Made by a program: the position numbers and the translations under genes. A DNA stretch of 64,000 nt from Convolutriloba macropyga. Its lineage: Eukaryota. Of the stretch, positions 1-54,647 are shown in pieces. The notes below the pieces were generated by a model that saw only the letters and a list, made by a program, of their open reading frames with translations, had not been told where the DNA came from and did not search any database. Location: the NCBI RefSeq assembly GCF_964194025.1, contig NC_134468.1, positions 20,460,001 to 20,524,000 on the forward strand, given 5' to 3'. Positions within the stretch are counted from its first letter, which is position 1; the number at the start of each line of letters is the position of its first letter.

Positions 1-1433
1 CCGTTGAAAAAACTGCTCCATCATCATCAGAAAAAAAGTTAGTTTTTTCTGTCAATCAAGTCGTAAATTGTCAAAACATGACAATTACATGACAGTTACA
101 CATGTTTTTTCTTTAAAAGCATTTTTCGATGACAGGTCTCAGAATAGAACTTCACATGATGCCGCCGGTTATTGCAAAACTGCAAAAAACGGGGTTCTAA
201 CTCTTTTTTATCAGGTAGTTGGTGTTCGAATTAATGCCAGATGTTAATGGGACATGAATGGCCAGATGTTTTGGAAATCGGTGAAGGAGCAGTTTTTCGA
301 CCTCGATGCTTATGAGCAAATTTGTCAAGCATAACGAGGGCATTACAAATCTGCAAAAGAAATTTTCAATTTTTTTTTAGTTAATTAGTAATTTGGCTAA
401 TTAAGCGCTAATTAGCTCTTAATTAAGGGCTAATTAACTCATTAATTATTTGTCTAAATTTGACGAGTGTGATGAGAGTTTTTGTAGCTCATTGTCTGCG
501 GATGCCAATGAAACACTCCTTTTCATCCCAACTATTTTTGGAGCCCACTTTTTTGGGGTCAAAGGTCACTGTTAATGTGTTAAAAAACAGCAAAAAATTG
601 CGTTTTTTAATGTTTTTCTCAAAAATTTTTTCTCAAACATCTTCTTTTTTAGCATCGGAACAGCCCGTTGGCAATTAGTTGATGATACCACATCCTTCTT
701 TTACCGTGTTTTCGATAGTTTTACTTGTCATTTGATATATAAATAGTACAATTTCAAAGTTTTCACCTAAATTTTACACTTTTTCGGCACTTTTAAGTTT
801 CTTTTACTGCCTTTCTGTCAGTTTTTTCTTCCAAAACGAGCGAGTAGTATTGTTACGTTTTACAACATGACACCTAACCATCCATCTACACACATTTTGA
901 AAAATCTTATGACAATTTGTTGGTTTTTCATTCCAAGAAATTTTGATTTTTTTTGTGATTTTTTAAAATTTATTTTTACAATAGTGCTTATTAGGGACAA
1001 GTTGATGGTATTAGTTGCTATTCAACACAGCAGCCGAAGAACTCTTTGCAATGAATTGAGTAACCAGAAAAAAACTAGTAAAGATTTTGTTTTTCGTGGT
1101 TTATGTAATATGCTGAAGCAACTAATTCTTACTGTTTTAAGTTGAATAACTTTGTAAAATCCATTTCAAAGCACTCTATGAAGGAGTATAATTAAACAAA
1201 AGTTGATACTTGATTTTTAAACGTGATTTCCATAGGCTAAAATTCTAGGTTCCTGCTTATGGGATAATTCAAAAGACAGAACAAGTTCAAACATGTTCAA
1301 TTAGAGAAAAACTGAAATCTTTGCAAATTTTTCATGTATAAACACCAAATAAACGCTTACATATAATTACACAAAAGAAATAAATTATGGGAAGCTCTAA
1401 AATTAAGCAGAGAAAGTGATGCTGATAAAAAGT

Positions 1434-2177
1434 TTAGTCTTCAAAAAGCACCGAGAGATTAAAATCCGACTTTCTTTTTTTAGGTGCTCTGCATACTTTT
1501 GGCGTCTCCAAATTGTTTGGAGTGATAGTCTTATCTTCTCCATCGCTCTCTGGAACTGGTGTTTTTGGTGATTCAAAGTTTGCCTCTGAAAGCATTGTAG
1601 TATCGGGTGTTTCTTGGCTTGTCGTTCCAATTCCAAATATCCAAGGAACTTGATCTCTACTGAGTGCTGCGAAAAATGACGGGCTTGAGCTCTGAGGCGT
1701 TGTTGTAGCGCTAGGGTCACTCAGCGGAGTTGTCGGTAAGCTTTGCCCTGAAGAACTTGATGGTGATGTAGGCGATAATTGAATGCCCCAAAGACTGGCT
1801 AAATTGTCACGAGCATCTTGAGCTCCAAGTTGGTTTTCGAATAGTGGCACACAATCGCAATCATACTTGAAGAGAAGTTGCTTTGTCTCATCGGGTAATG
1901 TTGCAATGTCTTGCGGCTCACACGATTGCAGTTGTTGTGGAGGCACTAGACCACCAGAAGTTATAATACTTCCATTGGCAGGTAAGTTTTTTCCCGGCAA
2001 AGTGGCAACAAAATCGATAATTGGTTTTGGTATAATGAAGCGGTCTGATGTAATCCAATTTTTCTCAGAAAAGTCTTTATACTGTTGAATAAAAACAACA
2101 TAATTTTCGTACATAGTCTGATATACTAAAGTCCTTTGCCAGGACTCTTCAGAATCAGAGAGCAAATAAAAAGACAT
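1434..2177 (-). CDS. Polinton accessory protein; possible N-terminal PC4-like fold, S/T/P-rich tail and PKKRK NLS
   Basis: Open 247-aa ORF; TTTCAG acceptor-like site 1 nt before the ATG; C-terminus ETPKVCRAPKKRKSDFNLSVLFED. Confidence 0.6.
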   Translation of the reverse strand: MSFYLLSDSEESWQRTLVYQTMYENYVVFIQQYKDFSEKNWITSDRFIIPKPIIDFVATLPGKNLPANGSIITSGGLVPPQQLQSCEPQDIATLPDETKQLLFKYDCDCVPLFENQLGAQDARDNLASLWGIQLSPTSPSSSSGQSLPTTPLSDPSATTTPQSSSPSFFAALSRDQVPWIFGIGTTSQETPDTTMLSEANFESPKTPVPESDGEDKTITPNNLETPKVCRAPKKRKSDFNLSVLFED

Positions 2178-2494
2178 TCTGAAATTTTAAAATTTCAAAA
2201 ATTGTTCAAGCAAGCAATCGAGATCAGATAAAGAAAGAGATTGAAAGATAGAGAGCAACTAATGCCTCAGCGGAAAAGAGTCGTAGTTGTTTAAACTAAT
2301 TTGATTTTATGGTTCAGGCACTCCCTTAGGTCACAATTGTTTTCAATCCACTAACTACGATTTTGATCCCCTGCATATTACCCACAAGAAGACAAATTTA
2401 TTGAAGCTAGCTGTTATCAGTGCACCCGACCAATGTTTAACGACATATATTTATATGTCCCATGATTAGGTTTAAGCTGTTTTATGCACACAAC

Positions 2495-2805
2495 TTTTCT
2501 ACATTAAGTTTTCCTTTTATTGCCCACTTTTCCTAGTGTGTATATATATTCCTATCAATTTGATCTCTGAGCTTAATTGTAATAAAAATTCATGGACCCA
2601 ACATGTTTTACTGCACGTGTTAATATATAAACAAACACGTGCGTTATAGAATAGTAGTTTTCTACATGTTCAGTGTTCCTTTTGCCCACATTTTCTGACA
2701 CGTGTTTTATGTCTTCTTATCAATTTGATCTTTGAACTCTCTTTGCAATAAAATTCCATGGACCACGCACGTGTTAATAATTGAACAAACATGTGTTTTA
2801 CAGAA
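2495..2805. repeat. Imperfect ~160-bp direct duplication in the divergent intergenic region
   Basis: TTTTCTACAT..TGCCCAC..TATCAATTTGATCT..CATGGACC..GCACGTGTTAATA..AACAAACA occurs twice in the same order. Confidence 0.8.
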
Positions 2806-2830
2806 AGGTTTCCAAGTTAAAATGAATTAA

Positions 2831-2865
2831 CAGACTCAAGTACGCCGCTGGCGTACTTGAGTCTG
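2831..2865. other. Perfect 16-bp inverted repeat with 3-nt loop (candidate origin or cruciform)
   Basis: CAGACTCAAGTACGCC-GCT-GGCGTACTTGAGTCTG; the arms are exact reverse complements. Confidence 0.95.
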
Positions 2866-3034
2866 CATTTTCACACATGTAAACCTGTTTGCAATTAAAG
2901 ACAGAGACGACACTTGTTTAATCCAAGCTTGCCGCGCCACTTTGGTGTGAGTGTTTCTTCTAGGTGGTCTGTTAAATTTTATATCGCATTTCAAAAGAAC
3001 CTGTTATCAGTATAACCAAAGACTAAGTTGAAAT

Positions 3035-3355
3035 ATGCCGTTTTCTGCCACAAAAGATTCTGAGTTTGGGGATAGTTATTAAGATATTTCAAAGACGGAA
3101 AAACGTCTAATCAGGGCCACGCTCAAAACTTATGAGAAGACTGGAACGTATGTGTTTCTGAAACTATTCAAGAAAGTTGACGACGATTACGAATTTCAAC
3201 AACGGCTGTCACTAACTACCGAAGAATTTGATAAACTTATTAAAAAAGCGCCAAAAATTATGGAAACTTTTCCACTCAGTTCACAAGAAGCTGAATCAAA
3301 ATCGAAGACTGACGGACCTTCTCCTGCTAAGAAAACGAAATTTAGCGCAACATAA
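3035..3355 (+). pseudogene. PC4-like ssDNA-binding protein, one premature stop
   Basis: ATG at 3035 is in frame with ORF 3152-3355; TAA at 3080-3082. Reads KRLIRATLKTYEKTGTYVFLKLFKK..QQRLSLTTEEFDKL, matching the PC4 beta-hairpin/'SLTxEE' pattern; C-terminal PAKKTK NLS-like. Confidence 0.6.
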
Positions 3356-3360
3356 AAGTC

Positions 3361-4086
3361 ATGATTGAGGCAATGTTTGAGCGTTCACCTAGTTACTTCA
3401 AACAGTTTCAGAAACAGTTTAAATTTTTAGTCACTAATGAAAAAATTAACTGGTCAAGCGTGAAAAATTTTGCAGTGTGTTCCCATTTCGATTCAGAATT
3501 TTGTCAGTTGACAACAACGACATCTACTAACCATTTTCATGTTCTGATAGATACATCAGAAGCAGCAACAACTTACAATAACATTTTCAAACGAAACAAG
3601 GCTTTCCCCGTATCTTGTCTTTTCACAACTTTTCGATACTTGTTTTCATCAGCAGTGGATTTGGAGACAAAAGGCGATGTCTTTTTTAAATTGAAGTTAG
3701 CGGTTGATTTCAACATTAAGAATGAAGAAAAACCTGAGCCTGCAGCAACAGTGCGGAAGCGTTTACCAGCAATTGTTACTTTATCACAACAGCTACAAAC
3801 GAAAACTGCTGGAAACTCAAACAAAAATAATGGAAATACTGTGAAGTCAGTGAAAACAACGGTGGCGCAGAAGTCAGTACACAACATGATTTTGCCGGGA
3901 AAGCAAACTCAAACAGACAATTTCAGTAGTGAAACTTTGCGTAGATTTGAATCAATTTTAACTGGTCCTCATTCTGGTGCATTTTGTCGGATTATGGATA
4001 TTTTTGTGAGTGGTTATGGAAATTTGAATATTGATACTGATTTGTTGTTCATTCGTTTTGTGTATGAAGAAAAAATTAAATTTTGA
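3361..4086 (+). CDS. Putative HUH-superfamily (rolling-circle-type) endonuclease domain protein, no helicase domain
   Basis: Motif order FKFLVT ... FAVCSH ... NHFHVLID (HUH) ... FRYLF (candidate catalytic Tyr), then a low-complexity linker and a small C-terminal domain. Confidence 0.5.
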   Translation: MIEAMFERSPSYFKQFQKQFKFLVTNEKINWSSVKNFAVCSHFDSEFCQLTTTTSTNHFHVLIDTSEAATTYNNIFKRNKAFPVSCLFTTFRYLFSSAVDLETKGDVFFKLKLAVDFNIKNEEKPEPAATVRKRLPAIVTLSQQLQTKTAGNSNKNNGNTVKSVKTTVAQKSVHNMILPGKQTQTDNFSSETLRRFESILTGPHSGAFCRIMDIFVSGYGNLNIDTDLLFIRFVYEEKIKF

Positions 4087-4118
4087 AAAAATTGAATTTC
4101 ATTCAAACATTAGTAGTG

Positions 4119-4553
4119 TTAGGTCATCATCATATGGAGAGCAAACCGTATCAAATCATTATCACTACATTTAACAATGGGCTGAAAACTGAAAATAAGA
4201 TGAGCAATATAAATACAAAAAAGTCCACATAGTTTTGAGTCTCGACTTTGTATGGGCTGGTTTTCTAGAACTTGACATAGCTGAACATCTCCTTGGGTAG
4301 AAACCAGTCTTCGATATACATTCTTATAGAACAAAATTGGTTGCCCCAGAGGATCGGCAAAAATCAAATTCTTGTTTTTGACGCATAATAGGAGCCAATG
4401 TGTTCCAGCATTGTCAGACGTTGATGCATTGACTATTATAAATGAATTTGGTTGCAAAATTTTAGGGAAATTATTTGCTGCAAAGACACCCAGAAATTTG
4501 TGCTTCAGTAGCTTGCAGCGCTGTATTAAATCATTTACTTCGTCTTCGTTCAT
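4119..4553 (-). CDS. Adenain-like cysteine (maturation) protease
   Basis: FLGVF, IIVN..GTHW, FADPLG and IQ..CGLFC motifs (His/Asp/Gln/Cys) of the adenovirus/Polinton protease. Confidence 0.93.
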   Translation of the reverse strand: MNEDEVNDLIQRCKLLKHKFLGVFAANNFPKILQPNSFIIVNASTSDNAGTHWLLLCVKNKNLIFADPLGQPILFYKNVYRRLVSTQGDVQLCQVLENQPIQSRDSKLCGLFCIYIAHLIFSFQPIVKCSDNDLIRFALHMMMT

Positions 4554-5861
4554 TAATTTGTCAATATATGGTTTTTCGACACACGTCGTGCACTGTCAAC
4601 GTAAATTGTACTTGTTTTTTCGCCAATTATAAAAATTTCAATATTGTTTGGAAGAGCCGCTGAGAACTTCAGTTCCACGGTTATTGAACTGTTTGTCAGC
4701 TCCGGGTGAATAAAATCATGGGAAGTCTGTTGCGTGCTGGTAAGGTCAAAAACCATAAGGAAATGGCTGGGATACTCGCTCAGTTTAATTCCATGACCGT
4801 TGTCAATATAAGCCAAGTCGGATATTGTGTTAAAATAGAGACTTTTATTGTCATCTGTTGATATTGGACTATCCGCAACAGGCAGTCCGTTGCAATAAAT
4901 ATATATTTGTTCGAGGCCAAATTTCCGATAATGAAACGGGTTGAGCCTGTTATTGCCTAAGAAAGCTTCGTTAGTGTTTAAACAAATTGCAAGTCTGCGA
5001 ATTGGTTCCCGCGAGAAAATATCCTCTTGCTTCCAACTATGGAGACCAGCTGAAGCCAAAAACGTTTTTGTTATGGTTTCGAAGGTGGGATAAGATGCAG
5101 GACTACTTAACAAGGTTTTTTCAATGGCTGACATAACGTCATCATTTAGCGTCATCTTGCGGACATACAAATTGGCTTCTAAAATTTCTACTTTGTAGTG
5201 TTTTGCAGGGTCATCGGACATGATGACAAAGTCATCAATAGAGCGTCTGAAAGCAATGCGAAGCGTAACACCGCTAAGCAGATGTCGATCACAGGTGAAG
5301 AAGTCAACGGCAACTTTTCCATAAAAAGCGCACTCGGCTGATTTTTTAACTAATTCTTTTCTCCTGTCAATTTCTGGGTTCGCTAACGTAGCCGGGTTCT
5401 CTTCGAATGAGTAGCCTTGACATGCTAGCCATGTGTTTTTTGCGTCTTTGTTGTGTGAAAATTTGGTCTCGATAAAACTTTTATGCGCATAGTTCCCGTT
5501 GGCATTTGATAATTTTAGTCCATTAGCAGATACCGTACAATCAGAAAATAATGAATGTAACACATTGTTGCAAAAGTATGGAGCATCCGTTTTCGCTTTG
5601 TCAGTAGGAGCTCCTGCATCATATTTCAAATCAGCTCCAGACGACTGAACAATTTTACATTTGATTTCGAGAAAAATTTTTTGTAAATCTATAAAATTGT
5701 TTCGATCACCAGAGACTTCAAACTCTAACATAGGTCCATTTGGACTGTAGACAGGCCCCAATTTTGGCAGAAACTTCCATCAAACGTTACTAAGAGAGCT
5801 GGCTTTTAAAATAAATCCAGAAACTGTGAGTTGCTTCTGTTGGCAACAAATTAGAGATCAT
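4553..5861 (-). pseudogene. Major capsid protein (double jelly-roll, hexon-like); 5' end disrupted
   Basis: ORF 4553-5761 (LEFEVSGDRNNFIDLQ, NPFHY, FLMVFDLT). Upstream MISNLLPTEATHS/LDLF*KPALLVTFDGSFCQ is recoverable from ATG 5861 with two frameshifts and one stop. Confidence 0.88.
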
Positions 5862-6288
5862 CGTTAACTTTGGCGAAAAAACCTGACCGACTTCTTTTCA
5901 GGGGCCTCCGAGTGAAAATGATGTTTTTCCGTTTGGTTACTGCTGCTGACTTTTTGGATGAGCTCTTTGACCGACTTCTTAGTCTACGTTGTCGTAGTGT
6001 TCTTTTCCGTGATCCGCCGGTCTGTTTTTTTACTGTATTAGAAATGGTGTTCTTGAACGCTTGCTTTGGAGATTTTTTACTGCTTACTACGTCTAGTAGC
6101 TCCGGAACGCTCTGTTTCAACAGTTCCTTTCCAATTCGTTTGGCAGTCGGTAGAATGAATCGACGCGCTAAGGGTAGAGCAACACGGCCAATACCCGCAG
6201 CCAAAGCTCCGAAGCCACTACCTCTTTGTCGATAGTATCCAGAAAAATGCGGCAAAGAAGTTGCTTGATTTGCGTAGTATGAATCCAT
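5851..6288 (-). CDS. Basic virion core/membrane-active protein (YY..Q..QRGxGxG family)
   Basis: YYANQ..QRGSGFG, amphipathic helix, QTGG putative protease site, Arg/Lys-rich tail; lies between penton and MCP. Confidence 0.75.
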   Translation of the reverse strand: MDSYYANQATSLPHFSGYYRQRGSGFGALAAGIGRVALPLARRFILPTAKRIGKELLKQSVPELLDVVSSKKSPKQAFKNTISNTVKKQTGGSRKRTLRQRRLRSRSKSSSKKSAAVTKRKNIIFTRRPLKRSRSGFFAKVNDDL

Positions 6289-6289
6289 T

Positions 6290-7173
6290 TTAACTTGAAA
6301 ACTTTTTGAATTGTAAAGTCAAGAGAACTTTTCCTGTTCCCGAGAAGGGAACCAAGTCACCTGTTTCTGTTCGCAGCTCAATAGAAATGGATTGAATTGT
6401 GTTTGTCAGTAGCTTTTTGTAATCCAAGTTCGAAAAAACTATTCGATGTGTTGGTTCAACTTCGCACACACTACCGTTTTTTAGACGCTGTTTTGAATCA
6501 ATGACTCGTAAAAGAGGCGCTTTGGCATCACCCACGTACTGATATTCAATAATGTTTGCATATACAAATATCAAGTGTTTACCCGCCAACAGATCCGCTG
6601 GTAGCTCTCCATAATAAGCTTTTGTGTCGTCACTTTTCATTAGTTTATCTGCAGTCGTGTTCATTTTATAGCCAATATGGATACCATTGCCATCAGGAAC
6701 TCCCTCAAAACCAAGGATATTGGAATTTCCTTGCTTAGAAACGTAATCCCTTCACGTTTTCCAAACAAAATTTCGTATTTTCCAGAATTTTTTATTTCTC
6801 TGAAGGAAAAGTGAGGCAGTCCGGCTGTACGCTTTATTAATGCTAGAAGCTGATTTACTGTTTCAAATGTCCCTGGAATAAAGCCCAATTTTGATCCATT
6901 GTATGGTCGTGAGATAACATTGGCATCTGCGGCCCTTTTCGTAGCTTCTTCATATTCTTTCAAGCTGAAAGCAATAAAATCCCCCTCCACAACGTTTTCA
7001 ATTTTCGTTGGAAAGATAATTTCACTTAACGCTACCCTCCAGTCGCCAGAAAGTTGAATTTCATCATTAAAAAAATTTCGAAATGACGCCAGTGTATTTG
7101 ATTTGAATATTTGCATCGATGCAGATGATATAACATGTACTGTGAACTCATCTTCAAATTGATTTCGAGCCAT
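6290..7173 (-). pseudogene. Minor capsid protein (penton), split by a 1-nt frameshift near 6720
   Basis: N-terminal SSASMQIFKSNTLASFRN..LSGDWRVALSEI and C-terminal IFVYANII..VGDAKAPLLRVI..ISIELR..TLQF. Frame correction gives continuous IP-ILGFEGVPDGNGIHIGYKMNT. Confidence 0.9.
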
Positions 7174-7174
7174 T

Positions 7175-8284
7175 TTATTCGCTGCGTTCACGAACCAGTT
7201 GTAATTCTGGTTGATAGAATTTACCCTCTATTTTTTCTTTGTTTGCGTCAATAATAGAGTAGGTTGGCGGTGACAACGTCGGAATATCTGTAATCTCAAA
7301 TACCTCGTCAGTAAAGGATTGTTTGTATCCCTTTCTGAACGCTTTGTCCTTTTTGACAATTCTAACAAAGTCTCCGATATAAAACTTGGGTTTTTGACGG
7401 ATACTTGTTTGAGCACTCAGTGAGACCAGCCTCGGTACATCTTTCTTTGTAACCTTATTTGGGGCAGGTTTAGTGACCCGGTTAACACGTGAATTAATTG
7501 TGTTCACAAACTGATCCAATTTATCAATATAAGAGTATGTTCACTTTTCTTCAAGGTATTTGTAGATGATATTTTTCAGCGAGCGAATGCTTCTTTCTGC
7601 AAAAGCAGACTTTTTTTCACTGAAGGTGCTATATAAATGAATCCCTCTTTTCTCACACATGCTTTTGAAAGCTCCAAGAAACTCTGTACCATCGTCAACC
7701 CATACTTTTAATGGTTGTTTGTACTTAATCATTTTTTTGAATGCTTGGGCTGCTTCTGTTGCATATTTAGTTTTCATTGGTTCTACTCTTAGATATCGTG
7801 ACAGACAGTCAACTGCTACCAAAAGGTATTTGACATCTCGATTGTACTTTGCAAGTTTATCAACATGAGCTAAATCCAGAGACCAAATTTCATTAATGTC
7901 CTTTACAATGACTTTCAGTCTTGGAAACCTTGAACGAATTGAGCGGTATTTTGTGAAGGATGGTTTTGCTTCTAAATATGACCTCACTTTAGCCATTGAC
8001 ATTTTGCTTTGTGTATGAAGTCGCTTTGGGCTACCAAAAGAAGCAGGGCCTTTTGAATAAAGCTGCTCCAAGGTTTTTCTCTCAGAAGAAGAAAGGATCC
8101 CATTTTTTCGGTTGACTCTCTTTTTTGTTTGTCTTTTTGATTTTGACCTTTTTTCCTGTTGTGGCTCGTTTTGGGTTACCGCTTCCTGATTGTGGACTTT
8201 GTTGGGTTGGGAAGAATTCTTGTTCACTTTCATAGGCTTGTATAATTTGCTTGGCGTAAGTGTTTGCAACAAGTTCAGGCTCAA
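7175..8284 (-). pseudogene. Retroviral-type (rve) DDE integrase of Polinton, one in-frame stop at 7541-7543; start uncertain
   Basis: WSLDL, VDCLSRY, VDDGTEF, KSAFAERSIRSLK, then K*TYSYIDKLDQFV read-through into KPKFYIGDFVRI..FRKGY..GKFYQPEL. Confidence 0.95.
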
Positions 8285-8822
8285 CCGGGAGAAGAGCTAA
8301 AATTTTAGAGTATTCTGATTGATCAATTTTTTTAGTAGGCTGCTGTAAATCATACAAAAACTTGGAGACTTGTACACTTGTTGGTTCTTGATTGATGTAT
8401 AGTAACTTGCTTTCCTCTCCAATTGTAACTGCTTCCGATTGGAAGATAAGATCAAGCAAGATTTCTGCACGTTGGATTTTGTATCTTTCTTTCAGTTTCA
8501 CTAGCCCCATTATTGATTCAAAATTTGCGGGGGCACTTTCTGGTTTTTTTGTGACAACTGGATCAATTTCGCTGTCATCACTAATCGAGTCCATTTTTTC
8601 GGGCTCGTCTACTTGTTTTTCCCGCTCTGTTAACACTGGCTCGGTTTGAACTACTCCATCTGTTCTTTCCACGCTGTCCTCGGAACTTGGCATATTTCTC
8701 TGCATGAGTGTTAACTGAGCTGCTTTGTTTCTATAGGCTGGGTTGTGGAGAATTTCGCTTTTTAATGGTTGTTTCGACATGAACATTCGCTTCGGAATCA
8801 GAACAAATTCTTCTGCATGCAT
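8082..8822 (-). CDS. Conserved Polinton protein of unknown function upstream of integrase
   Basis: 246-aa ORF with MHAEEFVLIP N-terminus, in the usual position between the ATPase region and the integrase. Confidence 0.6.
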   Translation of the reverse strand: MHAEEFVLIPKRMFMSKQPLKSEILHNPAYRNKAAQLTLMQRNMPSSEDSVERTDGVVQTEPVLTEREKQVDEPEKMDSISDDSEIDPVVTKKPESAPANFESIMGLVKLKERYKIQRAEILLDLIFQSEAVTIGEESKLLYINQEPTSVQVSKFLYDLQQPTKKIDQSEYSKILALLPVEPELVANTYAKQIIQAYESEQEFFPTQQSPQSGSGNPKRATTGKKVKIKKTNKKESQPKKWDPFFF

Positions 8823-9120
8823 TATGATTTTTCAGGTACAGAAAACAAGCAAAGCTAACCGTTTTTACTAGTTCTATTTCTCTCGCAAAAATTTCCTTTT
8901 TTGTCTTCCAACTTGTCTGTTTAGATAAAATTTTTCTGAATGAGCTTTCTGCGGTCTCTATCAAGTTTTTGTTGATGGGCACGTTACCATTAACTACGTT
9001 CAGGAAGCATTCGCAAAGAAAATAAATAAACTTTTTAGTTGCTGACTTGATTAACTTTTTTAACTTGATATCCGATACTTGTAGCATTTGCTGAAGCATA
9101 CATATTTCTTTCTCTTTCAT
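8731..9120 (-). CDS. Small conserved Polinton protein (CECxxNxxxGNVP motif)
   Basis: LIKSA..FLCECFLNVVNGNVPI motif seen in small proteins next to Polinton ATPases. Confidence 0.65.
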   Translation of the reverse strand: MKEKEICMLQQMLQVSDIKLKKLIKSATKKFIYFLCECFLNVVNGNVPINKNLIETAESSFRKILSKQTSWKTKKEIFAREIELVKTVSFACFLYLKNHNACRRICSDSEANVHVETTIKKRNSPQPSL

Positions 9121-9760
9121 CGGTTAAAATTGTAATAACAGCTTTTGCTGGAGGTAAGTAAAAAATTGAGGGGCCTGGAGGCACAATATTAGAGGAATAA
9201 CGTAACGCGTCTGACGTTTTTGGGTCCAGATCAATTAATAAATGACCAAAAGGTTGCTTTGTTGCTAACTCATAACTTTCTCTTAAAAATTGTGTGTTGT
9301 TGAGTTGTCGACCAATTAAACCAATTTGTTGAACATCACGAGGCGATTTAAATAAAATAATGTGTGTTGTATTAAGATCAATAGTTCTGGACCATTTGCT
9401 CTGTTGAAATAAGTTGTGTTTCACGTATATCACACTGATTTTCTTATGACGTCCAGCTGTCGCTAATTTAGAAAATTTTTTATCATTAAAAATTTCTTCA
9501 CATGAATCGTCAAATACCAAAAGGCAATCATCTAGTTCTGATATTTGCTCAAAACTGGAAAACTTCATAAACTGAATGTTTATTTTTCTCTCAATGAACT
9601 GAAATTTAGGTTGTTCATGCTGGTAGAAATAAAATATTGATTCAAACTTGGGTGAGGTGTTTTGAAGTAACATTTTGAAAATCAATTCAGTTTTTCCACA
9701 ACATGATGGGCAACAAACAGCCATAAAAAGTCTATCGGTAGTTGAAATTATTTTATTCAT
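9035..9760 (-). CDS. A32/FtsK-like DNA packaging ATPase
   Basis: Walker A (C)PSCCGKT with the first Gly replaced, Walker B LLVFDD, GRH..ISVIY..HNLF, FKSPRD. Confidence 0.93.
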   Translation of the reverse strand: MNKIISTTDRLFMAVCCPSCCGKTELIFKMLLQNTSPKFESIFYFYQHEQPKFQFIERKINIQFMKFSSFEQISELDDCLLVFDDSCEEIFNDKKFSKLATAGRHKKISVIYVKHNLFQQSKWSRTIDLNTTHIILFKSPRDVQQIGLIGRQLNNTQFLRESYELATKQPFGHLLIDLDPKTSDALRYSSNIVPPGPSIFYLPPAKAVITILTDERERNMYASANATSIGYQVKKVNQVSN

Positions 9761-10031
9761 AGTTTCGGGTTAGGTAGAGCGTATCCGACTGTGCAAAAAG
9801 GAGTGAAAACCAGAATGTTGATTCTTCACAATCGAGTTTAAAAAACACCAATTTGACCAAAGAAACACCTATAAGAAAAATTATTATGAAAATTTGGGTA
9901 AAATAAACCACCTCAGATCTTGGAACTCTAGAGTTACAAAACCGCCAAGATCGCCTTTCTTGGTGATTTTCGTCAAAAACTAAGTCAGTTATAGCTCCTC
10001 CAGCGTCAATGGTGTCCTCGGGTTGGGTCAT
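9753..10031 (-). CDS. Small membrane protein (1-2 TM helices)
   Basis: Hydrophobic VVYFTQIFIIIFLIGVSLVKLVFF and FWFSLLF segments. Confidence 0.6.
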   Translation of the reverse strand: MTQPEDTIDAGGAITDLVFDENHQERRSWRFCNSRVPRSEVVYFTQIFIIIFLIGVSLVKLVFFKLDCEESTFWFSLLFAQSDTLYLTRNYE

Positions 10032-10084
10032 TTGAAACAGTTTATTAAATTAAACAATGAAATGAAACTCACGCTCATGCATAA

Positions 10085-10339
10085 TTATTTGAGAATAAAA
10101 AACTCATAACAAACAAATTGTGAGTTTTCATCAGTTTTTTTGTAAGCAATAGTATAGTTTGCATTCACATTGTCAGTTTTATCTCTGAACACAACTGACT
10201 CAACGTTGCTGTCTCTGATGCTCTCCTTAATTTCAGCCGGAAGACGTTCATCTGTTGGAGATATCTGAACTGGTACTGCATGCTTGGGCATAGGTAAAGG
10301 GATTAGTTTCAGACTTCGCGCTTTCTCTTGAATAGACAT
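10085..10339 (-). CDS. Hypothetical Polinton protein
   Basis: 84-aa ATG-started ORF tiled within the co-oriented gene block. Confidence 0.45.
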   Translation of the reverse strand: MSIQEKARSLKLIPLPMPKHAVPVQISPTDERLPAEIKESIRDSNVESVVFRDKTDNVNANYTIAYKKTDENSQFVCYEFFILK

Positions 10340-10577
10340 GGTATAATTTGAAATATTCTAAGAGGGAAAGGTATTTTTTCAGTGTCTCTATTTCTGTTTC
10401 AGTACAGGTAACTTGTTGCTTCCTTAGCACAGTTTGACCACGGGTATCAACTTTCTCTTCTTTAACAAATGAAACGGTTAGCTGTTCTTCAGCCGTTATG
10501 TAACTGTAAACTGTCAAATTTGGAGACAAATTCACTTGAAGGAGAGATGGAGTTGATTTTTCCAAACGACGACTCAT
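10248..10577 (-). CDS. Hypothetical Polinton protein, possibly divergent PC4-like fold
   Basis: LSPNLTVYSY..LTVSFVKE..QQVTCTETEIETL pattern. Confidence 0.45.
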   Translation of the reverse strand: MSRRLEKSTPSLLQVNLSPNLTVYSYITAEEQLTVSFVKEEKVDTRGQTVLRKQQVTCTETEIETLKKYLSLLEYFKLYHVYSRESAKSETNPFTYAQACSTSSDISNR

Positions 10578-11073
10578 TCGTTAGCCACTGGTAAAACAAT
10601 TTGGCCTTCTTACTAGCACAATGTCTACTTCATTGTCGTTTGGGACAACTTACCGCATGTAATTCACAAATTGGTATGTCGCGATATAATTTTAGGTTTT
10701 CAACCTTTGGACATAACAACGTCTCCAAATTGATAACGTCTCTTTGGAATAACTTCTTCAAAGTGTCCGCCTTTTCAGTTCCTTTTGCATAAAATTCGGC
10801 AAACGGAAAACGAAGTTTGATGCTTTGAATAATTTGTTGCAAATAGCAATAGGGGTAATCTCCGCTCTCCCAAGCCAAACCATGAAGAAATTTTGAAACC
10901 CACTGGTAAGACTTTTGTTCACTTGAGGAAAGTATATTGAATGAACTTGGGGGTAGGAAAGAAACTGTATCGCTTTAATTATGAGAACACACAGAAAGCT
11001 CTTTGATTATAAAACCCGATTTCTTTTGTCGAAAGCCTTCAATATCAAGAACAACTGGTCGCAGTTTCAACAT
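10489..11073 (-). pseudogene. DEDD/DnaQ-like nuclease-fold protein, two premature stops
   Basis: From ATG 11073: MLKLRPVVLDIEGF..FIIKELS..N*..HGLAWESG..YAKGTEK..INLETLLCP..CELH..Q*SRHCA, in one frame to TGA at 10489. Confidence 0.7.
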
Positions 11074-11480
11074 TCCAATAAACTGAACAAATTTTTCTTA
11101 AATGTCTTCACATAGAGACAGAAAGCTATTCCTGTGACGTGACCGAGAAACTCATTTGTGACTGGACAGGGCAATACGTAAGAATAACCTGGCCCTTTTT
11201 CGCTGTGTTCAAAGACAAAACCGGAAGCGTCATGGAGAATAGCATGCAACCTTAAAATTTTGTAAGCTTTGAAGTATTTGTCAAGTGTAGAATTGTCAAT
11301 ACCAATGAGCCCACCATAGGGTCTTAACTTCAATGCAATATCCAAATCAAGATCAGGATCCAAGTAAAAACAAGTTGCTAAGAAATACAGATACCTTTCA
11401 CTATACCCTGAATATTCTTTCTTCACTTGCTGGTATAACTCGTGAATACTTTTCAAATCTACCGTTGCAATTGTTGCCAT
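11067..11480 (-). CDS. Putative phospholipase A2-like protein
   Basis: PYGGLIGIDN glycine loop followed by HAILHD (His-Asp dyad) and GPGY. Confidence 0.5.
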   Translation of the reverse strand: MATIATVDLKSIHELYQQVKKEYSGYSERYLYFLATCFYLDPDLDLDIALKLRPYGGLIGIDNSTLDKYFKAYKILRLHAILHDASGFVFEHSEKGPGYSYVLPCPVTNEFLGHVTGIAFCLYVKTFKKNLFSLLEC

Positions 11481-11690
11481 TGGGCGCTCCCCTGAGAAAT
11501 GACACTTGAAACCTATTCACCCAGTTTTTGTTGTATAGGGAAGAGATAGAAACATAGAAAACAAAAATATTGAGAAATTGCATTTTAATTCAACCAATCC
11601 TATTCCCACTGTTAAGGTTTTCAACGGTGACCCATTTAACTCCCCCCTCCATCTTTCCACCCCTATACTGTTATGACCGCTTAGGATAAT

Positions 11691-12130
11691 CCCCTTTATT
11701 CCCATGTTTATTCATCGTTAAAATACCCACTTGAAATAATCCCCTATATTCCCATGTTTAAGTATCGTAAAAAATACCCATTTAAAAACCCCCTATATTT
11801 CCATGTTTAAGTATCGTATTATTACCCACTCAGCATAAGGCCCTATATGCACACGTTTATGATCCCAGGAATGCCAACTTGGGATCACTCTCTATATTCA
11901 CATGTTTAAGTATCGTAAAAAAAATACCCTCCTAAAAAACCCCCTATATTCCCATGTTTAAGTATCATAAAAGACCCAATTAATGTCATCCCCTATATTC
12001 CCATGTTTAATTACCACAAGGATTACCCTCTCACCATAACCCCCTGAAATCACATATTTTTGATCCTAGGAATTCCCACTCATTATCACTCCCTATATTC
12101 CCATGTTTAGTATCGCATGAATACCCCCCC
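11691..12130. repeat. Subterminal tandem array, nine ~50-bp units with 4-unit higher-order structure
   Basis: Core CCCCTATATTCCCATGTTTAAGTATCGT at ~11691, 11741, 11790, 11841, 11891, 11941, 11990, 12041, 12091. Confidence 0.92.
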
Positions 12131-12610
12131 CCGCTCTTAACGCTCTTATTATTTACTACTGTCCCGTTTTAAAGTGGGGGAGGGGGGTAAATAGGTGGGT
12201 TGGGGGACAGGTTGGCATGGGTGCAGGAGTGTGCTGGTGGTGGTGAGGGGGGACAGGTAGGCGTGGCGAGGCAGGTAGGTGGGAGTGTGCGGTAGTTGTG
12301 AGGAGCGACTGTTACGTAAAGAAAACACCTTGAATAATACCAGCAGTTCCTTATTACTATATATTAGAAACTAAGATACTGTTAAAATCCAATATTCGAA
12401 AAAAGAAGTCAACGTTCCAAAACAGAAGTAATGTTCAGAAACGAAGAAGTTCACGTCATATATTTGCTTCAGGTAAAAAACCTGTAGAATACCGATACAA
12501 CTCGTCCGAAAAAGATCGAAGGACTAATATAATTGCTACAAACCTCATTTGAGAGCAACTACACATTCAGGATACTTCCATAAATCTTAGTGATAAACAA
12601 TTATGCCTAC

Positions 12611-12777
12611 TTGTAAACAATGGGTCCCGCCTGCTTTACAATGGGCTTGGCCCCACTGGACATGATTTTATCAGCATTTGTGACATTGAACAGGTAGAAA
12701 CTCATGTAGAGCGGAGTGTCACTGGAGGGAGCCACCCACAAGTCAAACACTGCCGAGTCATTTACCAGATAGGCTTC
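12611..12777 (-). CDS. CD36/scavenger receptor class B family, coding exon 2
   Basis: AG|EAYLVNDSAVFDLWVAPSSDTPLYMSFYLFNVTNADKIMSSGAKPIVKQAGPIVY|GT; FYxFNVTN..KP.V.Q.GP is the CD36-family signature; phase 0 in, phase 2 out. Confidence 0.92.
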
Positions 12778-28665: not shown

Positions 28666-29289
28666 TCAATGCTTTTCAATTCTGCACAATGGATTATCAT
28701 AAACCATCTGCAAATTAACTTTGTGACCACACAAATCTCGAATATTGTCAAGTTTATACTTGATCATGGTTGGCCTTTCAAGAGACAAGCCCCATGCGAT
28801 AACCGACACATCTTCAGGTAAACCCATCGGAATCAACATTTCGGGTCTGAATACGCCCGAATTTCCGATCTCAATCCACTTTTTCAGCCCCGGATGGAAA
28901 CTGAAAACTTCCATGCTTGGCTCGGTGTAAGGATTGTATGCCGGCTTGAAGCGGAGATCTTTAATTCCCAATTTATTGAAGAACTCATACAGCATACCAA
29001 TCAAGTTTCCCAATGTTAAGTTGTAGTCGGCCACGAGACCTTCGATTTGATGAAACTCGGCCAAATGTGTTGCATCCAGGGTCTCGTTTCGGAATACCCG
29101 ATCAATAGAGAACAGTTTTACTGGTTTGAACTCTCCGGTTGCTTTTGTAGTTTCAGCAAGCTTATACAACATGCGAGATGAGACAGCTGTTGTGTGAGTT
29201 CGTAGAAGATTTTTCAAAGCTTCCTCTTCGCTCCAGTCATATTGGTATCCAATTGAACCCGATCCACCTTCAGAATGCATCTTTTTTAC
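28666..29289 (-). CDS. FARSA: Phenylalanyl-tRNA synthetase alpha subunit, exon 2
   Basis: AG|[65 protein letters not shown] (class II motifs 2 and 3). Confidence 0.97.
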
Positions 29290-29630
29290 CTGAACAAATC
29301 AGACCATTTTATAGTTAAGCTTCAAACCGGCTTTTCATTGTCTCATTAATGTTGCAGATAGATCCACAACTATCAAGGGAAGTCGGAGAAAAACAATTTT
29401 TTATGCCCCTGATTAACGTGTTGTTATGTATCACTTTACTATGTAAAAAGGCACGTGCTCCTGGGGTCGTAAAAGCTATATGCCCAGCAAGCTGGGACAG
29501 TTTGTTGATTATGAAAAACAGTTCGTTGCTTACGAGAAACAGTTCGTTACAAGTAATTTCTTGAAACAAAAATTGGTTAATTTAATGTTATTCTTGTCTT
29601 TTCCTTAACTAGAACGATCTTCCCATTGAA

Positions 29631-30053
29631 TACCATTATTAAAGCCTGGCGGTTAAGCCTCCAAGATCTCAAAACGGTTTAGTGAGGCTAGCTTCCGCTT
29701 AATTGAAGGGGTGTACGGTGAGCGCAGCGGGGCTGCACCGCGAGGGGGGTGCAAGGGTGGATTGGGGGACTGATGTGGGGGCCGTGGATGGGGGCGTGGG
29801 ATCATATTCTAAGTACTGCTCTTCACACCATAAGTATATTCTCCAAAACAGTTTCTGTGAATCGCATACTTGGAGGCTAGTGAGCTGAAAGGCTCTAAGA
29901 GCACTTAATCCCCACTGGGCGCTACCTGTTTATCCCGTTTTTGAGGACGAAAAGTCAAATGAGTCAGACGAAAAATCGGTCAAGCGAAAAATCGCATTAA
30001 AAAAAGACCGACAGGACTAATATAATTGCTACAAACTTCGTTTGAGATCAATT
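29631..30053 (-). mobile_element. Second copy of the G-rich HINE-related element, in the FARSA intron
   Basis: Near-identical to 27074-27546; ends TAATTGCTACAAACTTCGTTTGAGATCAATT hairpin. Confidence 0.7.
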
Positions 30054-30755
30054 ACAAAAAAAAATGTTTTCATTGAATAATATCAGTTTACTTTTGTTTC
30101 AAAACCTTCAGACCTAATAAATACCCATTAAAGACTATTCTTTCGGCTGCATTATTGCTCCGAACTCACTTAGTGGGGGGGGGGGGGCTATAAACTCAGC
30201 TGATTTTTTGTTCAGTCAATTTTGCTCGATCAGGATATATCGTCATGAGTAGAATAAAATAATTTGAGGGTTTTTTGGATGTCATTTTAATCAAAGAGTT
30301 ATCGAGTTTTTTAATGGTTAAAGACATTTCACCTTTTACGCTAATTTCGTACACTTCTAGGCCAATAATATCTTCGCAGTTATTAGAAATTAAATTAATT
30401 CTTTTTTTACTCAGGGGCTATCCAGTATAGAAACAATAAAATAGGTTCTTTTGGTTCGAAAGCAACTTCGGTTTTCTTCAAGCAAAAATGTGATGACCTG
30501 TGGTGTGAACATTGTCTCATAGAGAAAGATACAAGCATCAGAATTAAAATCAAAACAGACATGATAAATAGAAATCAAAATGAAATGTGTAGTGATTTTG
30601 AATCAGAAAAAAAACTAGAAACATTTAGGACAACAGCCTCCCTTCCTCTACAATGGTTCCTATTGATGCTTCTACTACAGGGCTCTGGCGGATGGAGTGT
30701 TTTAATAGTTTTACAAGCAAAAATGAAGCGAAGAAGTTAAAAACGGCATGCTAAC

Positions 30756-31619
30756 CCTTTCCATGTAGTCGCCAGGTATTAACTCTTTATTGCATTGAGC
30801 TGGATGACTCACAAAGAAGGTATCGTGTGCATCTCTTGCAGGGTGCTGTTGAGGTTGGAACAGAGCATCAAAGTTCCAGAACGAGCTTTCAACAAAGTTA
30901 TTAGTGGGCATCTCTGAGAATCCCATTTCTAAGAAAATTTGCCTGAATTCACTGCGTACTTTCATTAGTGGGTGCAAATGACCTGAATCGGGGAGTCGCC
31001 CTTTGGCAGAGAAATTGTACCCCTTAAAACCTTGCTGCTTCCAAGAACCGTTTGCAATCATCTCACTGGTAAGGTCAGTTGCCAATTTTTCTGTCTCTAG
31101 AGAAAAACCCGGTCCCTTGCAGATTTCGTAGAATTTTTCAACACGCTTTTCAATTAGTTTTCTCTTCTTATAGTCATCAAGAGTTTTCGGAGGAAGTTTT
31201 TCACCCAATTTGAGATTCTCCAGATCCTTCTGAACATCATCAACAATAGATTCTGTTGCTCTTTTCACAATACCACTGGCTTTATCCAGTGATACCCATT
31301 TCTTCGACGATGCCTTGCCAAATGCAATACTGAAACCTTCGAATGATTTTTTCAACTCTTCCAAAGATGATCCTTCAGAAGCAATTTGCTGGAAAAGTCT
31401 GGCCTCTAAACTCCCCGCCTGCAACGTTTTTTGACCTTCGTCTGTCAACAACCACTTCTCTTCTGACATTTCCTTCGTCGCGATGACATCACCGAGGGAT
31501 TGCACACTTTTCATTGCCCCAACAACTTCCTGATGGTCTTTACCGTGTTGCAGTGCAAAAGCTCTCGTATCCGAAACGACATCGTTTGCACTTATGTGCT
31601 CTAGCAATAGAGTATCCAT
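30756..31619 (-). CDS. FARSA: Phenylalanyl-tRNA synthetase alpha subunit, exon 1
   Basis: GHLHPLMKVR..FWNFDALFQPQQHPARDAHDTFF; donor YMER|GTTAG at 30755; phase 0 join gives a 495-aa protein. Confidence 0.97.
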
Positions 31620-31773
31620 TATAAATCTGAAACAAAAGGGGATAAATTTTTGAAGGATAACCGAGTAACACCCGACTATTTGATCTGAATCGACAAGGCG
31701 AGGGGACAGTAGCCTGCTTCAACTTTTTGGAAGGTTACTAGCATTTCTTGAGGTAAAAACTGCCTTAATTTTC

Positions 31774-42383: not shown

Positions 42384-43361
42384 ACTTGTATTGTACGACT
42401 TTTATTGAAACACAACTTAAATAAATAATGGGTTTTTGCATGTCATCTTTCAAATCGACATATATTTTTGTTCTAATTTATTTAGAACTAAAATTAAGTA
42501 TGATGCAGAGCCAGAGGTTCCGTTTTGTCAAGGCAATAAGTCCCTCATTAAAAATGGTTTTGTGATGTTTTTAACTGACAAGTTGGTGTGGCCTTGTGGT
42601 GACTTTGTTGCTGTTGTTGACGGTTACTCTTCGGTGCTGGGCTGGGTGATCGGGTTAATACTTTTCTTTATTTCTGGGCTCTTTTCCAGCAATAATTGCT
42701 CTAGTGACTGTTAATGAGTGTCGTTATTATATTAAGTTTTCATTAAAGCAAAATAGGGAGCTCAAAAATTGATAACAGTGACTTTTTTTGAGATCAAATG
42801 GCAATTATCCGCTGTAACTTTAATTTGAGGCATGTTCACGAATTCAAATTTTTAGTGACGATTATAGAATTGCAAATAAGATAAAAATCACTTGGTTGGC
42901 AACCAGTAGCCGTAGTCAATATAAAACAGTCAACCGACTGGCTTCAATTTACCAGTAAATTAATATCAGCAGGATATTTGAAATACGTAAGAAAAGATTG
43001 GGCGAAATTTATCATCGTAATCACAAATTGTTGGTTACTCGAGCTAAATCTGGATTTTGTTTCTTTGTTAAATGATGAGAATAGCAAGTCAGATTTTCGT
43101 ACGAACTTTAATAAGCGTTTCAATTTGCCATCAAAATAATTTACGGTGGACAAGAATCTTGCTTGCATTCAAAATTGGAAAGATCAGGAAAAAAATTGCA
43201 CAGTCGTTCACGGTGTCATAGTATGACTCATCAAGTATCTCAACGTACAAAGCTCCATCTTGTTTAAAACAAACAAAATGGGACGCTGTTTTTCAATACG
43301 GTTGTTGGTGGACTATTCGGCATATTGAAACAGAAGGGTATTGTAATGGTCACATTGAAAT

Positions 43362-43940
43362 AGGGGTAAATTGTATCAAAAATTGATTAAACGTTCAATC
43401 TTGAGCTTTTTGAAGCTTTTGTTCCCTTTTATATGGCGGAATCTGTTACAGTGTTAACAACAACTTTAAACACCTCATTCAGTTTGGTACGCCAAAACAC
43501 AGAGTACAGACACGGGAAAAATAACTATCTGCATAAAAAACATAATTGACTCAAATTAAATAATAATCTAGTCAGTTTGTAATAATTGGGTGATTTCGGA
43601 TTTGCACCAGTTGCACCAGTAAATAGCACCAGTTTTAGATTGCTAAAACTTTTTAAAAAACCTGTCAATTGATTACTAATATTTTTTTATTAACGCATTG
43701 TTTCAATGTCAAAACTGTAAGATTGCGCAATAAACCGAAAATTTAAACGAAGTAATCTCAAATAATTTCAATCAGATTTCCTTGATTTTAATTCTTACAC
43801 GTTCAATTGACGATTTTTCAAAATTTACATCTGATGGTCCCGAAAGTAATAATTCAGATAAATGTTTTCTATTACTTCCCAAAACCTGATTTTATTTTGT
43901 GCTAGTCCAGTTTACGTGAACATGCAGCATTAACCTCAAG
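43362..43940 (-). repeat. DNA-transposon end (possibly Kolobok-like), inverted copy of 46597-47160
   Basis: ~575-bp reverse-complement match ending GCATTAACC. Confidence 0.7.
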
Positions 43941-45099
43941 CGCTGGGATATCATTTGCGTGGTGTTGGGTAGGGTGTAACTTGAAATGTTTCAGCAAGGC
44001 TGAGCGTACAATTAGAAATAATGGAACGGGAATTAGACATGAAGGGTTTAAGACAATTTTAATCTTTGCTGGAACTGATGACAGGCTTCAAATATGCCAA
44101 CAACCGGATAATATGCCAAAAAAATTGTAGGAAGTGGATTAACAGAACTTTTGTATGCGTTTACACCGTCTGGTCAGTCATCAAAAACAAGTGGTAATAA
44201 TTCCGAATAAAACGTGGGCGGAAACCGGGTGTTGACGGTGCGAGTAAACGAATGAATAGATTTTTCAAATTTCCAGCGAAAAAAGAAAAATATGAGGCAG
44301 AATGAGCTGAAGAAGAAGGTTGAAACAAAATAAGAAATGTTAAAACTGTAATACTATATTTTATATGTGTATGTTATTTAGGACAGTGGATAAATTAAAT
44401 AAAGAAATTCTCCGAGCGCAAATACGTAGCAATTTGTGCTGAAATCTTAATTTGCGAGCACTGCTCATTGCTACTCGAATACAAGCACTGCCTGGGAGTT
44501 ACGGCCATTACGGATATAGTTGTTTCAAAATGGTTTTCAAATACATTGAGTCATGCAGAAGGACATGACTCGTTCTTAATAAGGTACAACCAGAGGTTCA
44601 AATTGTTCACCTTTTAGGTACTGAGTAAAGGCTATGTAGGATATTAGATACTAAACGATAGGTAAGGACAACAACTCTTATCTAGATTTTTCAATTTTTG
44701 TCTCTCAAAGGAGTTTTTAAATTCTTCTGTAACAATATGTATAAGCACACTAATTGATTGTGAGAATTGGAAGTTTCAAGCTATGAAACTAAAGAATAAC
44801 CCAAAATACTTCTAATGTGCTGCGGTAAATTGGAATGGATTACACATATTAATGCGTTCCACTTTCTTGAGTACACATTAATGTAATACGTTCAGTAATG
44901 CGCTATATCAAGTTGTTTCAATCTAATGTTTTCAGAGTTAATATTGTGTTCAATATGAGTCATTGCTTTTTGATGGTTTTCTCCATGAGGACAAAATCTA
45001 GTAAGCAAACGAAAAGAAAATATGGATGATAATAAGACTATACAAAAGTAACACATGAGAGGTAATTACGTAATTGAAAGTAACATAATTCAATCTCAC

Positions 45100-46560: not shown

Positions 46561-46596
46561 CATTGTTCTGAATTGTCCCATGTCTTATGATATCCC

Positions 46597-54377: not shown

Positions 54378-54647
54378 ATGAGCGAGAGGAAGGCCGTGAT
54401 CAAGAATGCCGACATGGCAGAGGACATGCAGCAGGACGCCATTGAATGTGCGACTCAAGCCATGGAGAAATTCAACATCGAAAAGGACATCGCCGCTTTT
54501 ATCAAGAAGGAATTCGACAAAAAATACAACCCAACTTGGCACTGCATTGTTGGCCGAAACTTTGGTAGCTACGTCACCCACGAGACGAAGCACTTCATCT
54601 ACTTCTACCTCGGACAGGTGGCCATTCTGCTCTTCAAATCGGGCTAA
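54378..54647 (+). CDS. DYNLL: Dynein light chain LC8-type, intronless CDS
   Basis: [64 protein letters not shown]; AATAAA at ~54873. Confidence 0.99.

Follow-up and report, generated by a model that had tools for sequence, protein, structure and literature searches.

A 64,000-nt stretch of the Convolutriloba macropyga genome (assembly GCF_964194025.1, contig NC_134468.1, positions 20,460,001-20,524,000 of the forward strand; hereafter the window) carries at ~1.4-12.3 kb what we read, with moderate confidence, as one copy of an animal Polinton (Maverick/adintovirus type) of high copy number, decayed and truncated on its left side. A minus-strand block (4119-11480) encodes an adenain protease, an rve integrase and an A32-like ATPase, all recognised by Pfam matches. 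On the plus strand, opposite in direction to this protease/capsid/integrase/ATPase block, lies a two-gene unit that consists of a PC4-like gene and a 241-aa open reading frame (ORF) with a predicted HUH (Rep) fold. An initial annotation of the locus recognised this orientation and proposed that the HUH protein, a single-stranded DNA-binding protein (SSB) of the PC4 type and a hairpin upstream of both genes form an origin-initiator-SSB replicon. The gene pair is real and apparently undescribed, but in our best reading it is not the proposed replicon.

Two neighbouring genes and their predicted folds

The 241-aa ORF contains FLVT, FAVCSH, HFHVLI and FRYL in the order given in the initial annotation, with the FRYL tyrosine at residue 93. 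Its domain plan comprises an HUH/Rep-fold domain (residues ~1-120), a variable linker and a conserved C-terminal domain of ~58 aa. The C-terminal 58 residues (window positions 3910-4083) are as conserved as the N-terminal domain in all subfamilies, have no family match and yield no confident model. The protein has 146 homologues among 401 candidates, represented by 364 sequences at 50% clustering, with identity down to 26-30%. The longest homologue among the best 150 of the 364 representatives has 318 aa. Pfam detects no helicase in the ORF, as previously stated, and a weak search of 7,999 candidates of 558-2000 aa, with lengths of 423-557 aa outside it, revealed no homologue fused to a helicase.

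A model of residues 1-125 built from 102 sequences reached a predicted local distance difference test score (pLDDT) of 85.4 and a predicted template-modelling score (pTM) of 0.80. When 48,161 solved chains were searched with this model, ranks 1-14 were all HUH-fold chains (Z 4.2-6.0), and the first unrelated chain followed at Z 4.0. The best chain is the nanovirus M-Rep (Z 6.0, root-mean-square deviation 3.2, 82 aligned residues), accompanied by chains from circovirus, vientovirus, pMV158 RepB, papillomavirus E1, smacovirus, SV40 large T, AAV5 Rep and SIRV1 ORF119. The inactive origin-binding domains of E1 and SV40/JC large T occupy ranks 9, 10 and 12. A second search of solved structures gave the same ranking picture with HUH-fold chains first, and Foldseek against viral models returned five matches at E ≤ 0.001, four of which are parvoviral NS1 (best NS1 E 2.8e-4). 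An earlier full-length model from 36 close sequences (pLDDT 45.9) had placed Reps near the top, not significantly. The Rep likeness first read from short motifs is thus borne out by the fold searches, and the modelled N-terminal domain very probably has the HUH fold.

The first gene of the pair is broken in the window copy. Its frame, read from ATG 3035, meets an in-frame stop at codon 16 (3080-3082) that the initial annotation overlooked; the gene's own stop codon (3353-3355) lies 5 nt ahead of ATG 3361 of the 241-aa ORF, a spacing that had been given correctly. Relatives of 105-135 aa are intact elsewhere, and 187 of 188 candidates proved to be homologues. The ESM Atlas leads from the PC4-like protein to a PC4 cluster (score 0.85). 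An intact sister protein is predicted to form a symmetric homodimer through its last strand and C-terminal helix, scoring 0.76 against 0.01 for the best control, with at least 98% contact agreement between runs and pLDDT of at least 83. The mark used was passed by 21 of 30 solved homodimers and none of 23 monomers (17 of 29 and 0 of 30 for eukaryotes), and a pass may reflect the predictor's memory of PC4 structures.

The small beta-sheet with a C-terminal helix and the predicted symmetric dimer are shared with PC4/Sub1, whereas the window gene is broken and has no Pfam PC4 or PDB sequence match: PF02229 matched none of the seven intact homologues nor the window piece, and the PDB profile search was empty. 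On these predictions the first gene is likely a PC4 relative, if one invisible to sequence profiles, and binding of single-stranded DNA is putative. The PC4-like label of the initial annotation therefore holds through the dimer prediction and the Atlas lead, but for a gene interrupted in this copy.

The PC4-like and HUH-fold genes are a conserved neighbouring pair across subfamilies. Thirteen predicted proteins of damaged sister copies run from PC4-like into HUH-fold sequence as frameshift fusions, which bears out the linkage read from the window copy, and 19 sister-contig sizes are common to the two match lists (best 120 each). In four sister proteins (P0357, P0223, P0073 and P0325) the two genes overlap, the HUH-fold gene beginning in another frame before the PC4-like gene has ended, compared with the 5-nt gap in the window copy. 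Such overlap in several subfamilies suggests that translation of the two genes may be coupled. In three others (P0209, P0211 and P0231) the C-terminal part of the HUH-fold protein is fused to fragments of genes that lie on the opposite strand in the window (the protease; 10248-10577); some sister copies are therefore internally inverted or rearranged.

Conservation was counted over the 147 of 265 proteins that cover profile positions 20-105. Many of these are decayed copies, and a separate count was hence made for the 17 high-copy clusters with at least 10 members (716 sequences). The histidines are retained (His42 in 141 of 147, His58 and His60 in 133 each), together with Cys48 (138) and Cys86 (143). 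Motif II is present as His-hydrophobic-His, formed by His58 and His60 with an aromatic residue at 59, and the candidate for motif I is a hydrophobic strand (residues 20-25), where Rep matches begin and Thr25 is not conserved. The model has a strand at 81-83 and a helix at 87-94 around motif III, and secondary structure together with the expected spacing makes it plausible to place this motif at residue 93.

The motif III tyrosine is not conserved. At position 93 the 147 homologues chiefly have His (38), Phe (35), Tyr (19) or Leu (17); 55 have Tyr88, 12 have Tyr91, and in 70 the whole 86-99 region is free of tyrosine. As these counts span residues 86-99, the argument does not depend on the register at residue 93. 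Among the high-copy clusters, Tyr93 occurs in one of 17, the window copy's own, and six clusters (287 sequences) have no tyrosine in the motif III helix, so that decay does not explain the loss. The motif III Lys/His is likewise rare (Lys96 in 1, Lys97 in 4 and His96 in 8 of 147), only two sequences pair Tyr93 with any of these, and the window copy has Ser/Ser at 96/97. In a quick tree, 92 of whose 144 inner branches are open, 13 of the 19 Tyr93 rows form the window copy's clade, nested among His93 rows (Shimodaira-Hasegawa-like approximate likelihood-ratio test 99); Tyr93 thus seems to have arisen locally, by substitution at a position that varies. Conservation of the histidines and the tyrosine had been set beforehand as the test of an active Y1 nickase. 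The histidines came through it (133-141 of 147) but the tyrosine did not, and with the motif III lysine also absent the nickase is not upheld.

The divergent intergenic region and the extent of the element

Between the two-gene unit and a divergent 247-aa ORF lies an 858-bp region (2178-3035) whose sequence features make it a probable bidirectional control region. It contains two imperfect direct repeats with CACGTG and, 170 bp ahead of ATG 3035 as first described, a perfect hairpin (Table 1). Four of the window's ten CACGTG sites fall within the region (post hoc Poisson ~1e-5, the repeats not being independent). A 9-bp perfect palindrome is located at 2180-2197, just upstream of the start of the 247-aa ORF.

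The hairpin is confirmed as a perfect 16-bp stem. Folding of 2780-2920 gives z = -5.3, with none of 200 shuffles equally stable, and the chance expectation of such perfect stems in 64 kb is 4.5e-4. It is not unique in the genome, because a second perfect stem (17 bp, with a 9-nt loop and 30% GC) occurs at 58795-58837 in unrelated host DNA. Rfam gave no match at E ≤ 0.1 over 1000-4200. Within the control region the 16-bp palindrome could be the site of a dimer or form a cruciform, but a CRESS-type nonamer pattern is absent from both strands of 2178-3035, the 3-nt loop included. The initial annotation had pointed to the unbroken stem amid damaged genes. Between the 241-aa ORF and its nearest cluster representative, 6 of 241 residues are changed (~1.1% per site), and at that divergence 32 stem bases escape change by chance with a probability of 49-70%. 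An intact stem is to be expected without selection and is thus no sign of it, and we dropped the argument.

No polymerase was found in the window, in agreement with the initial annotation. A six-frame motif scan yielded no pPolB motif set. Pfam detected neither pPolB nor a helicase in 19 proteins of the element or in 126 other ORFs of the window (44 of the 60 with at least 35 aa around the element ends and all 82 with at least 75 aa beyond 13 kb). The window copy spans ~11 kb and has one terminal region, on the right. No inverted partner of it occurs in 1-3100, where the local score against 1-3000 is 24 and the shuffled mean 25. Having one terminal repeat region without a left partner, the window copy is read as truncated.

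Contigs that bear sister genes support a larger unit. Of 219 distinct sizes, 18 fall at 14.1-17.4 kb, compared with 2.3 expected from the neighbouring density, in an interval picked after seeing the data; among the matches listed, the ranges of 12-14 kb and 18-21 kb are empty. The contig of the largest cluster, which has 174 members, measures 15,517 nt and lies within this peak. Such contigs may each be a single element of unit length, assembled by itself as a collapsed repeat or as an extrachromosomal genome. The window copy has probably lost ~3-6 kb, room for a replicase and the other terminal repeat, and the missing piece probably held the replicase. Because the window copy is truncated and shorter than its relatives' size peak, the absence of a polymerase is probably not meaningful, and the replacement of pPolB that the initial annotation proposed does not follow from it. 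In group 2 Polintons, according to a preprint (bioRxiv 10.64898/2026.06.19.733378), helicase-polymerase or helicase-primase genes often stand in for pPolB.

Possible functions of the gene pair

The explanation that we favour, at somewhat better than even odds, is that the second gene encodes a Rep-derived, metal-binding DNA-binding protein that does not nick, and that this protein and a PC4-like dimer are accessory gene products of a decayed Polinton. The computed part of this explanation comprises the fold, residue conservation, gene linkage, lesions and the missing second terminal repeat. Which metal is bound, that DNA is bound and at which site, what the C-terminal domain does and what the absent 3-6 kb encoded are inferred.

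The second gene would have been captured from a rolling-circle or rolling-hairpin Rep, the nearest shapes being CRESS Reps and parvoviral NS1. The fold and the His42/His58/His60 metal site would have been retained, with Cys48 probably closing the site at the position of RepB Asp42 and zinc as the probable metal. With the catalytic Tyr and Lys lost, the protein would bind DNA without forming a phosphotyrosine nick, as the polyomavirus and papillomavirus origin-binding domains do. Its target would most likely lie within the element, either at the palindrome and repeats of the divergent control region or at the terminal repeats. The C-terminal domain would serve oligomerisation of the HUH-fold protein. 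The PC4-like dimer would bind single strands exposed by melting or displacement, whether in transcription or in strand-displacement replication, the latter by a polymerase that full-length copies would carry and the window copy would have lost.

The metal-binding, non-nicking reading is drawn from the three-histidine layout, which resembles that of RepB, from the conserved cysteine in the Asp loop and from the lack of a nucleophile. The metal ligands of pMV158 RepB are His39, Asp42, His55 and His57, with Tyr99 adjacent (PMC5030251), motif III (YxxK) supplies the Rep nucleophile, and the HUH domains of polyoma- and papillomaviruses are inactive, having lost all three motifs and kept DNA binding (PMC6668415).

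Several observations weigh against this explanation. The best Z of 6.0 lies in a range where likeness may mean a common arrangement alone. No HUH family was reached by Pfam (with the protein and alignment members), PHROGs, PDB sequences or plasmid tblastn; the PDB search, with the protein and two profiles, gave chance matches only. The ESM Atlas points instead to AEP_C962R clusters (score 0.95). Unlike the polyoma- and papillomavirus domains, from which all three motifs have gone, this family keeps three histidines, whose strong constraint could mean catalysis by another route, and Tyr12 is present in 112 of the 147 homologues. The His3Cys site and the residue-93 register are putative, and the 14.1-17.4 kb peak could be an assembly or read-length effect.

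Two alternatives are unlikely, to about the same degree. One is a nuclease with non-canonical chemistry, in which the three-histidine metal would activate Tyr12 (as in relaxases), Cys86 or water, and the protein would nick or resolve hairpins. The histidine triad persists even among lineages that share 26-30% identity, none of the residues counted is better conserved than Cys86, which adjoins the motif III helix, and Tyr12 is the commonest tyrosine and sits on the N-terminal helix. However, Tyr12 is replaced by Phe in 17 of 147 homologues, including clusters of 46 and 13 members; most HUH matches start at about residue 18, past the Tyr12 helix; and the weak search for helicase-fused proteins found none. 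Conserved Cys/His sets are more simply explained by a zinc site.

The other is a protein that would bind zinc and act in regulation or in interaction with the host, its descent from a Rep being only historical and the hairpin an unrelated promoter palindrome or foldback remnant. The perfect hairpin of similar size elsewhere in the genome, the chance survival of the stem and the CACGTG-rich repeats, typical of a transcriptional control region, all agree with this. The HUH-fold gene nevertheless stays beside the PC4-like gene across subfamilies, and the known inactive HUH domains still bind DNA (PMC6668415).

The model of the initial annotation, in which an active Y1 HUH initiator would nick the hairpin and PC4 would act as SSB in a rolling-circle or rolling-hairpin step replacing pPolB, we consider improbable. 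It draws on the HUH fold with its HxH motif, a tyrosine at the expected place in the window copy's lineage and a real hairpin. Double-jelly-roll viruses that have an HUH protein and no polymerase are also known, namely Mriyaviruses (PMC11253617) and, some with an RVE integrase, Zora/VC102 and VC218 (bioRxiv 10.64898/2026.06.19.733378). Against it stand the rarity of Tyr93 and its nested clade, the missing motif III Lys, the 3-nt loop with no nonamer, the truncation of the window copy, and the retention of motifs I-III by the Mriyavirus HUH proteins as described in PMC11253617. Just as improbable is a version in which 14-17 kb members have no polymerase of their own and their HUH protein nicks the hairpin via Cys86 or Tyr12, with the PC4-like dimer as SSB.

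Least probable of all is a degenerate archaeo-eukaryotic primase (AEP, C962R-like) in place of an HUH derivative: 24 of 30 ESM Atlas matches are clusters with PF23162 AEP_C962R on 17-54% of members, close homologues carry D/E-x-D/E at 44-46 (88 and 74 of 92), and AEP-helicase fusions are frequent in group 2 Polintons (bioRxiv 10.64898/2026.06.19.733378), but the Atlas score is uncalibrated for protein parts, the acidic pair is found in only 19 and 22 of 55 distant homologues, in an indel-bearing loop of uncertain alignment, and HUH-fold chains came first in three independent fold searches. AEP structures lay outside the best 50 rows with the 1-125 model, which does not exclude the family, and ASFV PrimPol reached rank 43 (E 2.5) with a poor model.

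Compared with known systems, the favoured non-nicking protein shares its fold and HxH motif with CRESS Reps, NS1 and pMV158 RepB, and has a third, upstream histidine as RepB does (PMC5030251). RepB likewise lacks a helicase and has a short C-terminal domain, whereas the fused SF3 helicase of CRESS and parvovirus Reps is absent from the 241-aa ORF. Unlike these proteins, the window family has no conserved catalytic Tyr or motif III Lys/His, has two conserved cysteines, goes undetected by any sequence profile and has no nonamer origin. The origin-binding domains of SV40/JC large T and papillomavirus E1 share an HUH fold without nicking (PMC6668415); they are SF3-fused and motif-less, whereas the window protein stands alone and keeps a His triad.

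Mriyaviruses, Zora (VC102) and VC218 are double-jelly-roll double-stranded DNA viruses with a stand-alone HUH gene and in some cases an RVE integrase, a likeness that extends to the window element through its putative capsid gene. They are related to Nucleocytoviricota and usually have a helicase, whereas the window element belongs to the animal Polintons and its motif III is degenerate. The Mriyavirus HUH protein is predicted to be active, with motif III (PMC11253617). The preprint reports HUH genes in about half of Zora and 28% of VC218 Polinton-like viruses, many with rve integrases (bioRxiv 10.64898/2026.06.19.733378), and the combination of HUH, double jelly roll and integrase is therefore not new. 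Capture of parvoviral NS1 by a double-stranded DNA virus is described for fowl adenovirus ORF12 (PMC11071296). We found no literature report of an HUH-fold or PC4-like gene in animal Polintons, in texts whose supplements, 'Adintoc' genes (Starrett) and per-group HUH counts (the preprint) could include the family.

With this gene pair, the known range of HUH-fold genes comes to include a lineage of animal Polintons, and two Polinton genes that are invisible to sequence profiles gain a structural label. The family would represent a natural halfway state, with the metal site kept and the nucleophile lost, between active Reps and the motif-less polyoma- and papillomavirus domains, and since the protein is small and has hundreds of natural variants, the switch from enzyme to DNA-binding protein can be tested on it. 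It shows no new replication mode. If cutting without the motif III tyrosine, or full-length copies without a replicase, proved true, this would be a major finding; the two together, with the hairpin as the nicking site, would mean tyrosine-independent HUH chemistry driving the replication of an integrating animal double-jelly-roll virus.

Element genes and host surroundings

The element shares an integrase, A32-like ATPase and adenain protease (by Pfam) and capsid-, penton- and PLA2-like genes (putative) with Polinton/Maverick (adintovirus) elements, and differs in that the window copy has one terminal region and no polymerase was found. Two terminal inverted repeats with a target-site duplication were not found in the window copy. 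The gene 4553..5820, which has no Pfam or PHROG match, is probably the capsid gene, by its position and its likeness to Polinton/adintovirus hexons; the core-, penton- and PLA2-like genes are presumably what their names say (Table 1). The virion module is probably Alpha / group 2. PLA2-like genes mark Alpha modules (PMC8502044), and they are common in group 2 Polintons, where the replicase is variable (bioRxiv 10.64898/2026.06.19.733378).

Table 1. Features of the element by window position (strand given as + or -; basis of each assignment in the last column).
Feature	Position	Strand	Basis
247-aa ORF, Ser/Thr/Pro-rich, divergent from the two-gene unit; leftmost recognisable gene, candidate element member	1434..2177	-	no family match
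Two imperfect direct repeats, ~150-160 bp, 72% alike, with CACGTG	2495-2651, 2658-2805		within the 858-bp divergent intergenic region
Perfect inverted repeat, 16-bp stem, 3-nt loop (GCT plus, AGC minus)	2831..2865		direct reading
PC4-like gene, first of the two-gene unit, 106 codons, broken	3035..3355	+	ORF reading, intact sister proteins
241-aa ORF, HUH-fold, second of the two-gene unit	3361..4086	+	predicted model, fold searches
HUH/Rep-fold domain of the 241-aa ORF (predicted)	3361..3735	+	predicted model, residue conservation
Adenain-type cysteine protease, convergent with the HUH-fold gene	4119..4553	-	Pfam Peptidase_C5, E 5.9e-8
Probable major capsid protein, frameshift near 5' end	4553..5820	-	position and hexon likeness; synteny with contig L001
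Small basic Arg/Lys-rich gene, core-protein-like (putative)	5851..6288	-	composition
Probable penton, two frames, break near 6721	6290..7173	-	ORF reading
Retroviral-type integrase, in-frame stop at 7541-7543	7175..8233	-	Pfam rve, E 4.7e-9
A32-like packaging ATPase	9035..9760	-	Pfam Pox_A32, E 5.3e-5
Two small genes, each in two overlapping frames (10085-10577; 10630-11006)	10085..11006	-	ORF reading
PLA2-like gene (putative)	11067..11480	-	no Pfam, PHROG or PDB match
Probable right terminal region (putative boundary)	11669..12360		tandem array, then G-rich tract

Decay is widespread in the window copy, where the PC4-like, capsid, penton and integrase genes and the two small genes are all interrupted. 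A second PC4-like gene was considered at 10248-10577 and rejected (hhalign probability 0.1). The right terminal region consists of a 49-bp tandem array at 11686-12010 (6.5 copies) that is followed by the G-rich tract.

A GTDB scan with the capsid gene gave 174 matches, of which one was confirmed; a scan with the HUH-fold gene gave 111 pattern matches and none confirmed. The confirmed match is a Polinton fragment (L001:1-3819, JAAXJP010000107.1, 37.6% GC) on a contig in a bacterial metagenome-assembled genome. Its gene order of integrase, penton, basic gene and capsid is that of the window, with 57% capsid identity, and it stops inside the capsid gene. It is probably a eukaryotic carry-over into the bacterial bin.

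The flanks of the element are animal host DNA, with a CD36-family exon, phenylalanyl-tRNA synthetase, dynein light chain and retrotransposon remains. The CD36-family exon (12607-12777, minus strand) points toward the element, and the Polinton may lie inside an intron of this gene; no further CD36-family exon was found left of the element within the window. The phenylalanyl-tRNA synthetase alpha gene is present in two large pieces (28666-31718, minus strand) and the dynein light chain at 54351-54644. Gypsy-like and BEL/Pao-like remains occur at 35-42 kb and 62-64 kb, and a 1,456-bp tandem duplication at ~36.0-38.8 kb. The region 43361-47159 is a probable foldback or MULE-like transposon, in which a strongly skewed core lies between long inverted arms made up of several 89-160 nt pairs with 82-92% complementarity.

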